A stretch of DNA of 64,000 nucleotides from Octopus vulgaris (Eukaryota), in NCBI GenBank assembly GCA_951406725.2, contig OX597825.1:35836001-35900000 (forward strand), given 5' to 3'. The notes beneath the pieces are model-generated. The model was not told the DNA's origin. It saw only the letters and a list, made by a program, of their open reading frames with translations, and did not search any database. The translations under genes were made by a program, and so were the position numbers. Positions within the stretch are counted from its first letter, which is position 1; the number at the start of each line of letters is the position of its first letter. Of the stretch, positions 6,683 to 8,284 are shown in pieces.

Positions 6683-6969
6683 GTAATAATGAAGGGTGAA
6701 ATTAATTAATTTGGAATAATTATCAATTACACCAAGTAGTCTTCGGCATGTAAAAGCCTCATTCGAGGAAAATTTAAGTAATACTAAGCAATAAAGGGTT
6801 TGGCAACGAATTGCCTTACCACATACCGAATTTAGAAATAGCAGTTAAAGAGTTATAGCTATTTCTTCTACTAAAAAGGGAGATCTCAGTAAAAACAGCA
6901 ATTGGAAGGCAGACACAAACAGGTAAGAGGGAATGAATTGACGGCAATCTATCATACAATTTTAAGTTA

Positions 6970-7070
6970 TCTACGGACGTACGTTTCGAAATCAAGTTCT
7001 TAGGAAAGCATAAGAATTAAATATTAAATAATTCTATCTTACCAAGAACTTCTTTTCTCTTCAGCGTAGA
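6970..7070 (-). ncRNA. Type I hammerhead ribozyme (copy 1)
   Basis: Reverse complement of 7405-7505: UCUACG-CUGAAGA-stem II-GAAA-CGUACG-UC/CGUAGA. Confidence 0.85.
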
Positions 7071-7404
7071 ATACTATAATCATAAATGATTATATATTGA
7101 ATTTTGAGATACTAGAAGGCATCAACTCAACTCAGTATCAGAGCGAGCTAGAATCCGCAACTAGTATCACCAAATTCAATGTGTGAATGAAAAGATTGTG
7201 TCACCAGCCCCTTCCCACCCGCGTGTAGCCAAAACAAGATGCTGTGGTAATCTACTGAGATAAAATATGGTTATCCGTAATAATGAAGGGTGAAATTAAT
7301 TAATTTGGAATAATTATCAATTACACCAAGTAGTCTTCGGCATGTTGAGTTGATGCCTTCTAGTATCTCAAAATTCAATATATAATCATTTATGATTATA
7401 GTAT

Positions 7405-7505
7405 TCTACGCTGAAGAGAAAAGAAGTTCTTGGTAAGATAGAATTATTTAATATTTAATTCTTATGCTTTCCTAAGAACTTGATTTCGAAACGTACGTCC
7501 GTAGA
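7405..7505 (+). ncRNA. Type I hammerhead ribozyme (copy 2), predicted cleavage after C7499
   Basis: Stem I tctacg (7405-10) pairs with cgtaga (7500-05). Core CUGAAGA at 7411-17. Stem II is gaaa/tttc, then aagttctt/aagaactt, then gaatta/taattc. GAAA at 7488-91, stem III within the palindrome acgtacgt, GUC cleavage triplet. Confidence 0.88.
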
Positions 7506-7998
7506 TAACTTAAAATTGTATGATAGATTGCCGTCAATTCATTCCCTCTTACCTGTTTGTGTCTGCCTTCCAATTGCTGTTTTTACTGAGATCTCCCTTT
7601 TTAGTAGAAGAAATAGCTATAACTCTTTAACTGCTATTTCTAAATTCGGTATGTGGTAAGGCAATTCGTTGCCAAACCCTTTATTGCTTAGTATTACTTA
7701 AATTTTCCTCGAATGAGGCTTTTACATGCCGAAGACTACTTGGTGTAATTGATAATTATTCCAAATTAATTAATTTCACCCTTCATTATTACGGATAACC
7801 ATATTTTATCTCAGTAGATTACCACAGCATCTTGTTTTGGCTACACGCGGGTGGGAAGGGGCTGGTGACACAATCTTTTCATTCACACATTGAATTTGGT
7901 GATACTAGTTGCGGATTCTAGCTCGCTCTGATACTGAGTTGAGTTGATGCCTTCTAGTATCTCAAAATTCAATATATAATCATTTATGATTATAGTAT

Positions 7999-8099
7999 TC
8001 TACGCTGAAGAGAAAAGAAGTTCTTGGTAAGATAGAATTATTTAATATTTAATTCTTATGCTTTCCTAAGAACTTGATTTCGAAACGTACGTCCGTAGA
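7999..8099 (+). ncRNA. Type I hammerhead ribozyme (copy 3), predicted cleavage after C8093
   Basis: Same sequence as copy 2, 594 nt downstream. Confidence 0.88.
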
Positions 8100-8284
8100 T
8101 AACTTAAAATTGTATGATAGATTGCCGTCAATTCATTCCCTCTTACCTGTTTGTGTCTGCCTTCCAATTGCTGTTTTTACTGAGATCTCCCTTTTTAGTA
8201 GAAGAAATAGCTATAACTCTTTAACTGCTATTTCTAAATTCGGTATGTGGTAAGGCAATTCGTTGCCAAACCCTTTATTGCTTA

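Follow-up and report, generated by a model that had tools for sequence, protein, structure and literature searches.

What is a non-coding 594-nt repeat with hammerhead motifs, arranged in both orientations inside a (TA)n array of the Octopus vulgaris genome, and from which template and by which enzyme was it inserted? Since 2014, RNA circles made by hammerheads have been proposed as templates of Penelope-like element (PLE) reverse transcriptases (RTs) to explain tandem insertions, without direct evidence in the parts of the literature consulted here. The repeat in question belongs to a young family that supplies countable genomic signs of arrays made at insertion. We analysed it in a window of 64,000 nt (assembly GCA_951406725.2, contig OX597825.1, positions 35,836,001 to 35,900,000 of the forward strand); coordinates without a locus label refer to this window, whose position 7500 is position 1 of the monomer.

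The locus and its hammerhead motifs

The locus (6034-8893) consists of two arms of the monomer within a target array:

6034-6682, no strand: left part of the (TA)n target array
6683-7345, minus strand: inverted arm, 663 nt, 1.12 units (monomer 225 to 594, then 1 to 293); outer end at site B
7344-7345, no strand: GT microhomology joining both 5'-truncated arms
7344-8284, plus strand: direct arm, 941 nt, 1.58 units (monomer 439 to 594, 1 to 594, 1 to 191); outer end at site A
8283-8893, no strand: right part of the (TA)n target array
7500-8093, plus strand: 594-nt monomer between two predicted cuts, the predicted circular RNA, from fold computations

A preliminary description had given a 594-bp monomer in 1.1 minus-strand and 1.6 plus-strand copies, meeting at GT without mismatch, and its coordinates are confirmed exactly. 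The plus arm has a period of 594 (7344-7690 equals 7938-8284), the minus arm repeats itself exactly (6683-6751 equals 7277-7345), and over 449 and 561 nt each arm is the exact reverse complement of the other, with zero mismatches across all repeated parts of 6683-8284. The unit is non-coding, as had been proposed (longest stop-free frame 66 aa, longest Met-started frame 36 aa), with a GC content of 34.5%. The flanking TA is interrupted by ATTTATATGTA 12 times on the left and twice on the right, in one orientation and never reversed, as expected if the retrozyme split one older (TA)n array.

Other repeats lie around the locus. An open frame of 886 codons at 3372-6033 (minus strand) has Pfam matches to an endonuclease (PF14529, 6e-12) and an RT domain (PF00078, 1.9e-30). 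It belongs to a young LINE that is truncated at its 5' end by the TA array around the retrozyme and bounded by a second TA array (1985-3287). Directly after the right TA array comes a short repeat (8894-8970); stretches 81-96% alike occur at no fewer than 11 further loci, in one case within a Hydra pseudo-LTR (pLTR). Frame fragments with RT and endonuclease of another LINE type, which we take to be RTE-like, are found at 1293-1985, 57940-58533 and 60052-60700 (all minus strand), and related tandem units of 63-66, 125 and 191 bp, rich in GTGCCACC, at 621-1209, 35230-35626, 52382-52580 and 55805-55928.

Three hammerhead motifs are present:

6970-7070, minus strand: type I hammerhead motif; core starts at 7064, predicted cut after 6976
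7405-7505, plus strand: type I hammerhead motif 1; core at 7411, predicted cut between 7499 and 7500; compensatory helix I/II changes in sister families
7999-8099, plus strand: type I hammerhead motif 2; core at 8005, predicted cut between 8093 and 8094

Their cores, as described earlier, are identical (CTGAAGA...GAAAC GTAC GTC/CGTAGA, the slash marking the predicted cut). Each motif comprises a 6-bp helix I, CUGAAGA, a 70-nt helix II, GAAA, a 2-bp helix III with a palindromic GUAC loop, and GUC. The canonical metazoan type I hammerhead, in the excerpts of PMC4209133 used here, has CUGANGA/GAAA/NUH, a 6-bp helix I, a 4-bp helix II base and a 1-2 bp helix III with a palindromic loop; our motif fits this description except that helix II is lengthened to 70 nt. 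An Rfam search of the locus, which had been suggested as a check, returned no hammerhead match at the gathering score or at E<=10, probably because of this helix length. The hammerhead fold (-24.9) costs only 0.1 kcal/mol relative to the minimum-energy fold (-25.0). Among sister families, chosen for this comparison by their downstream domain, helices I and II vary in a compensatory manner around a constant core of CUGANGA/GAAAC/GUH. Within the family, the 27 core sites hold one inherited variant where about 3 would be expected (compared with 67 in 567), a shortfall that does not reach significance. The whole monomer is predicted to be highly structured, with a minimum free energy of -172.5 (z -9.0; 0 of 100 shuffles equally stable) and a circular fold of -165.6, so that the earlier suggestion of a monomer able to circularise agrees with a computed, circle-compatible fold.

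A dispersed family with two end sites

The exact 22-nt junction across the cut site occurs 245 times genome-wide (control 0). A BLAST search with the monomer, proposed earlier as a way to find copies and arrays, gave 2,043 candidates, 40 of which were scored; these 40 yielded 183 matches, most at 97-100% identity, and both tandem and inverted arrays. These counts uphold the claim of a very young mobile family. Junction-bearing loci number 48 on C1-C6 (1.08 Gb of the 2.8-Gb genome), corresponding to an estimated 120 or so genome-wide, a figure that excludes short copies without a hammerhead. Our analysis covers 77 loci, namely these 48 and 29 others from the top BLAST matches. TA flanks them on both sides in 70 cases, on one side in 6 and on neither in 1, and arm length runs from about 40 to 4,440 nt (up to 7.5 units). 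The loci have no fixed LTR-type termini, and the absence of PBS and PPT is judged from anatomy alone. The window element is thus one young copy of a dispersed mobile family.

That the tandem and inverted layout is an assembly artefact beside long TA arrays seems to us hardly credible. Microsatellites of 600 bp do flank the arms, which are 100% identical, and support from read runs is at the level of the family, not of the window junction. Against this, the layout recurs in 37 loci whose breakpoints differ and which follow the strict pairing rule given below, two private alleles of the window locus are present on both its arms, and the head-to-tail joint and TA-flanked ends (monomer 195, 292 and 305) recur in contigs of all four public runs compared, which are independent, carry two organism labels and are not listed as RNA.

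Sister families with units of about 601, 586, 583, 566 and 493 nt have the hammerhead and the downstream domain in common with the family; the units of about 493, 566, 583 and 586 nt were seen at L135 (1232-3985), L144 (8010-9065), L205 and L195, respectively, and those of about 493, 566 and 583 nt occur as inverted insertions with one arm per end site. Old inverted remnants of about 200-300 bp, holding the structured domain only, lie between TA runs at L038 (2516-2787), L078 (5550-5836 and 6673-6881) and L274 (2491-2645). Such remnants are common in unselected DNA, which argues that the retrozyme clade has long been active. It is likely that the retrozyme is part of a cephalopod radiation, new here; we found no octopus or cephalopod retrozyme in the open literature, and the family may already stand in repeat catalogues without a name. 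Long-helix hammerheads with 'GTAC', considered as a sister retrozyme, were rejected as such because they turned out to belong to a Hydra element, as its pLTR. Accordingly, the 1,125 hammerhead matches mix retrozymes and Hydra pLTRs (about 61 of the 100 listed are of the retrozyme type, by eye).

The outer ends of the insertions define two sites within a conserved domain:

7603-7804, plus strand: conserved structured domain, monomer about 104-305, containing both end sites; relatives down to about 67-70% identity
7688-7703, plus strand: site A, putative reverse-transcription start, monomer 189-204, mode 195 counting TA overlap
7789-7804, plus strand: site B, second putative start, monomer 290-305, just 3' of a GGUG...CACC hairpin

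Ends group at A (183-205, with 195 in 41 of 114) and at B (286-309), about 100 nt apart. Among 37 inverted loci, 30 combine A with B, five A with another end and two B with another end; AA and BB are absent, and random pairing would yield 30 of 30 mixed A+B pairs with a probability of 9e-9. The A-B offset ranges from 88 to 113 nt (median 103), more than the 30-40 nt that is usual for PLE tails. The window locus is itself of the A+B type (left end 6683 at B, right end 8282-8288 at A). Single-arm loci (n=40) end at A in 29 cases, at B in 8 and elsewhere in 3. The 5' ends are scattered; only 7 of 119 lie near the cut vs 4 expected, and the hammerhead cut was rejected as the 5' end of insertion. 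Where arms meet, overlaps of 1-4 nt are present in 21 of the 37 inverted loci. TA microhomology was rejected as the origin of sites A and B, since better TA-like stretches of the monomer are unused.

Could one arm be copied from the other by folding back, along the lines of the self-priming idea (PMC3846280)? Such copying is possible in 21 of the 30 A+B loci and fails as a general cause of inversion in 9, the window locus included, where neither arm fits within the other. In these nine, both arms were accordingly primed on a longer or circular template. The domain that holds the sites, about 200 nt long, has predicted helices that are 96% paired across 12 relatives, with modest covariation (4 of 36 pairs compensatory, a count reached by 86 of 500 shuffles). 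Sites A and B are predicted to be more often unpaired (0.73 and 0.72) than the monomer overall (0.38).

The insertions share with PLEs 5' truncation, partial tandems, an inverted 5'-truncated arm, extension at one end and a preference for (TA)n, a target favoured by Neptune, Naiad and Hydra. In the portions of PMC11167929 and PMC8557442 consulted, the 'tail' of PLEs, found at only one end, reflects the use of two RT start sites inside the element, and from the genomic ends we infer that sites A and B are start sites of this type. The Penelope-type anatomy of the preliminary description is borne out by the TA on both sides and the prevalence of A+B pairs, and we are highly confident that a PLE drove the insertion of the retrozyme.

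Template and partner enzyme

Divergence is 0.49% within arms, 0.29% between arms and 1.9% between loci, in a first pass that omits one arm of L159. Of 29 testable loci, 28 have the same haplotype on both arms, compared with 107 of 1,095 control pairs. In 172 cases a common variant is fixed among all units of a locus, and in 11 it is mixed. Private variants fixed in every unit of their locus, in up to 5 units, number 21; 14 of the 21 occur on both arms, although 8 of these 14 come from a single diverged locus, L151. Joints at the cut site are seamless in 122 of 122 instances (39 loci), with no indel or substitution across monomer positions 592 to 6. One haplotype per locus and seamless joints together indicate that the arrays were likely made at insertion from one monomer. 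Variants confined to a single unit are not shared between loci above chance (9 of 76 vs 11 +/- 3) and look like later mutations. The likely process is repeated copying of one monomer at insertion, for which a ligated circle is the simplest explanation.

Some loci depart from this uniformity. In L161 a variant is found in the penultimate unit of each arm and not in the third, the pattern expected of a linear multimer template. L159 (1997-7383) is a nine-unit inverted locus whose arms have different haplotypes and whose units are mixed, pointing to two templates or two insertions, and in L142 and L155 variants occur in subsets of units. These bear on an alternative in which the same PLE insertion used a linear multimer RNA that had been transcribed from a donor array and left uncleaved; the hammerhead would then be incidental and homogeneity a legacy of young, uniform donors. 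The L161 variant and the mixed units of L159 agree with it, seamless joints are equally expected without cleavage, and a PLE in vitro used unprocessed RNA and could dispense with cleavage by its hammerhead, according to the excerpts of PMC11167929. Yet linear copying only shortens arrays, whereas many haplotypes here form uniform multi-unit arrays, with private variants fixed in as many units as noted above and no excess sharing of single-unit variants; moreover, compensatory change maintains the hammerhead fold across families. We therefore regard a linear multimer as unlikely and a circular template for the retrozyme insertion as probable.

Alternatively, the unit could represent a solo pLTR that 5' truncation of an autonomous PLE left behind and local unequal crossing-over expanded, with no independent RNA cycle. 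There is a precedent in Xenopus, where 24 of 57 retrozyme families match TEs and about 21 of 57 have pLTR homology, which is not universal; the same source considers evidence on the retrozyme life cycle limited and favours local expansion via unequal crossing-over (10.64898/2026.07.22.740005, in part). The Hydra origin of the 'GTAC' ends also speaks for it, and our search for a parent covered the PLE families compared and was not exhaustive. The monomer had no BLAST, nhmmer or profile match to five Neptune-type families, one Naiad fragment and the Hydra families compared, an incomplete survey in which the autonomous partner sharing a pseudo-LTR, raised in the preliminary description, did not appear. 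Several observations run counter to a solo pLTR. An RT plus GIY-YIG ORF is absent from the unit and from its continuation, and the sequence runs into an ORF of any kind in 0 of 77 loci; arms longer than one unit always proceed into the next monomer. Even loci whose arms differ by only 0.03-0.1% have multi-unit arrays, and the number of units shows no relation to how far the arms have diverged (rho 0.07, n 26). On this evidence a solo pLTR is very improbable.

Several young PLE families occupy (TA)n in this genome and could have supplied the enzyme. Five of them, A (781-aa frame), B, C (775 aa), D and E, are presumably Neptune-type, judging from their Zn-finger linker (L064, L248, L251, L142 and L242; A, B and C with an upstream ORF); the others are of the Hydra clade and were located using a motif from Hydra-1_Obim. 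A 35-nt match in this genome is identical to published Naiad_Obim DNA. Inverted loci make up 20 of 48 for the retrozyme, 10 of 20 unselected for the Hydra-727 family and 8 of 76 for Neptune; the retrozyme rate differs from that of Neptune (p 1e-4) and not from that of Hydra (p 0.60), in small sets of different length classes. A second Hydra family, one of the Asn-rich subclade described below, has 7 of 8 ends inverted.

Hydra-727, a young family represented by L287 (2760-9210), has a 727-codon frame at 5872-8055 without a Pfam match, a unit of about 3.3 kb and a compact canonical hammerhead, and accounts for most of 273 Hydra-motif matches. It ends at +37 and at +107-110 past the cut. Among 10 unselected loci in which both ends were visible, 9 have one arm at each of these points, as do 7 of 7 other loci. 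An Asn-rich Hydra subclade (L345, 826-3768; L336-L343) has long 3' UTRs, a helix II of 51-60 nt, a palindromic loop III and end offsets of 74-123 nt. It holds many open frames of about 840-1,090 codons, one of which, the 980-codon frame at G000:C4:96406525-96409467, was checked to be open. Its members are longer than the 'generally under 3 kb' given for Hydra elements in the excerpts of PMC8557442, and their Asn-rich inserts resemble those of rotifer Penelopes (PMC3846280).

Inversion rate, the two-site rule and long-helix-II hammerheads of the retrozyme resemble those of Hydra-clade families with intact ORFs, not those of Neptune. In the 980-aa family one end is preceded by a hairpin and by the 11-mer that also precedes site A (11 of 11; p 0.001 before correction, 18 tests), and two other Hydra rows show a GGUG...ACC hairpin before the end, as at site B (p 0.014-0.026, uncorrected). 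This resemblance of end motifs was noted post hoc and, in 17 of 18 rows, is weak; one row was mis-extracted. It serves as a lead. A likeness of the monomer to Hydra-727 noticed by eye was rejected by a shuffle test (p 0.88). We think a Hydra-clade protein is quite probably the partner of the retrozyme, and found no paper in the open literature naming a Hydra partner for a retrozyme.

If the template was a circle, the enzyme could instead have come from the abundant Neptune-type families, which are young, intact and very numerous in (TA)n, and of which A, B and D are likewise two-ended. However, Neptune loci are seldom inverted, their end offsets are about 30-45 nt, and most of their ends fall at TA tracts within the element, whereas the retrozyme monomer has more TA-like places than sites A and B. 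Nor was a canonical hammerhead found in families A-E: E, with a 4,470-nt tandem unit, has a hammerhead-like core beginning U/A/C/G-UGAAGA, not CUGAAGA, and A and D have similar degenerate motifs by eye. A Neptune enzyme is accordingly improbable.

Two further arrangements involve these families. At L181 (1579-1620) a Hydra pLTR end is fused without TA to a 5'-truncated Neptune E copy, by nested insertion or template switch. Six near-identical Hydra copies lie at G000:C29:29567016-29689042, five of them about 9 kb apart, a spacing that suggests a larger tandem duplication.

Taking these parts together, we lean towards a young non-LTR retrozyme inserted into (TA)n by a PLE, probably of the Hydra clade, that copied a predicted self-cleaved 594-nt circle from two fixed sites. 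A donor copy with two hammerheads in one arm would be transcribed, and its two ribozymes, likely acting as a dimer in view of the short palindromic helix III, would excise one monomer, which a host ligase could close into a circle. The PLE protein would bind the structured domain and nick both (TA)n strands; cDNA would be primed at each nick, one from site A and one from site B, and each would be extended around the circle over a distance that varies (40 to 4,440 nt). Joining of the truncated 5' ends of the two cDNAs by microhomology would give an inverted insertion; alternatively, a single arm would be integrated. Arms long enough for two hammerheads occur in 14 of the 48 census loci, the window locus included, and such copies, with two cut sites in one arm, may be the next donors. 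The most specific version, rolling-circle TPRT of a ribozyme-made circle by a Hydra-clade protein that is recruited through a conserved RNA fold, not through sequence in common, and that primes each nick at its own site on one and the same circle, would provide a first named partner and start sites; we put it forward tentatively, at somewhat less than even chances.

The most informative features are the two fixed end sites, the strict rule of one arm each, the homogeneous arrays and the likeness to Hydra. With homogeneous arrays, start sites and intact candidate proteins in hand, the circle model can be tested directly in the existing in vitro PLE assay. The one-arm-each rule informs how PLE inversions and tails arise, and a short RNA domain directing multi-copy insertion into (TA)n is a possible tool.

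Comparison with known systems

Chlamys elements such as MRC1 (PMC8557442) are also non-coding PLE parasites with multicopy head-to-tail insertions, but their 3' end resembles that of the autonomous partner and most lack a hammerhead. Poseidon_Ac (PMC11167929) likewise has two internal RT starts downstream of the hammerhead that are unlike the AT-rich target, and both strands are cut and extended; its tail measures 30-40 nt compared with about 100 nt in the retrozyme, and its starts were shown in vitro on linear RNA of an autonomous element, whereas those of the retrozyme are read from genomic ends.

Hydra-clade PLEs (PMC8557442; Hydra-1_Obim) have in common with the retrozyme (TA)n targets, a canonical hammerhead upstream of the ends, inverted arms and extension at one end, to which those of this genome add a long helix II and end offsets of 70-120 nt. 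The retrozyme differs in having no ORF, a 594-nt unit, up to 7.5 units per arm and no detectable homology to them.

In animals, non-LTR retrozymes consist of type I hammerhead repeats in tandem, are expressed as circles and have PLEs as their proposed partners (PMC7229834; PMC4209133; PMC6765202). As in these (PMC7229834; 10.64898/2026.07.22.740005), the octopus units are non-coding and tandem with type I hammerheads, low in GC (<50%), without LTR, PBS or PPT, highly self-paired and found together with PLEs, and for both a circRNA template with a PLE partner is proposed. Monomer size had been thought longer than typical. That view does not hold, for although 594 nt exceeds the 150-450 of PMC7229834, it lies inside the 51-972 bp reported in 10.64898/2026.07.22.740005 (fish mean 650 bp) and is thus not unusual. 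Differences from the accounts consulted are the dispersed short arrays in (TA)n, PLE-type inversions, two fixed ends and a 70-nt helix II. Some Xenopus retrozymes have pLTR homology and none was found for the octopus unit; 8 of 9 Xenopus retrozyme dimers failed to cleave (10.64898/2026.07.22.740005), and the octopus circle is predicted only. From its sequence, the octopus element is a member of the class, sharing its sequence-testable features except pLTR homology. Neither the class nor the idea of a PLE acting in trans is novel, since both are already in PMC7229834 and PMC4209133; what is new here is a probable cephalopod radiation of this known class, with mapped start sites and a candidate partner enzyme.
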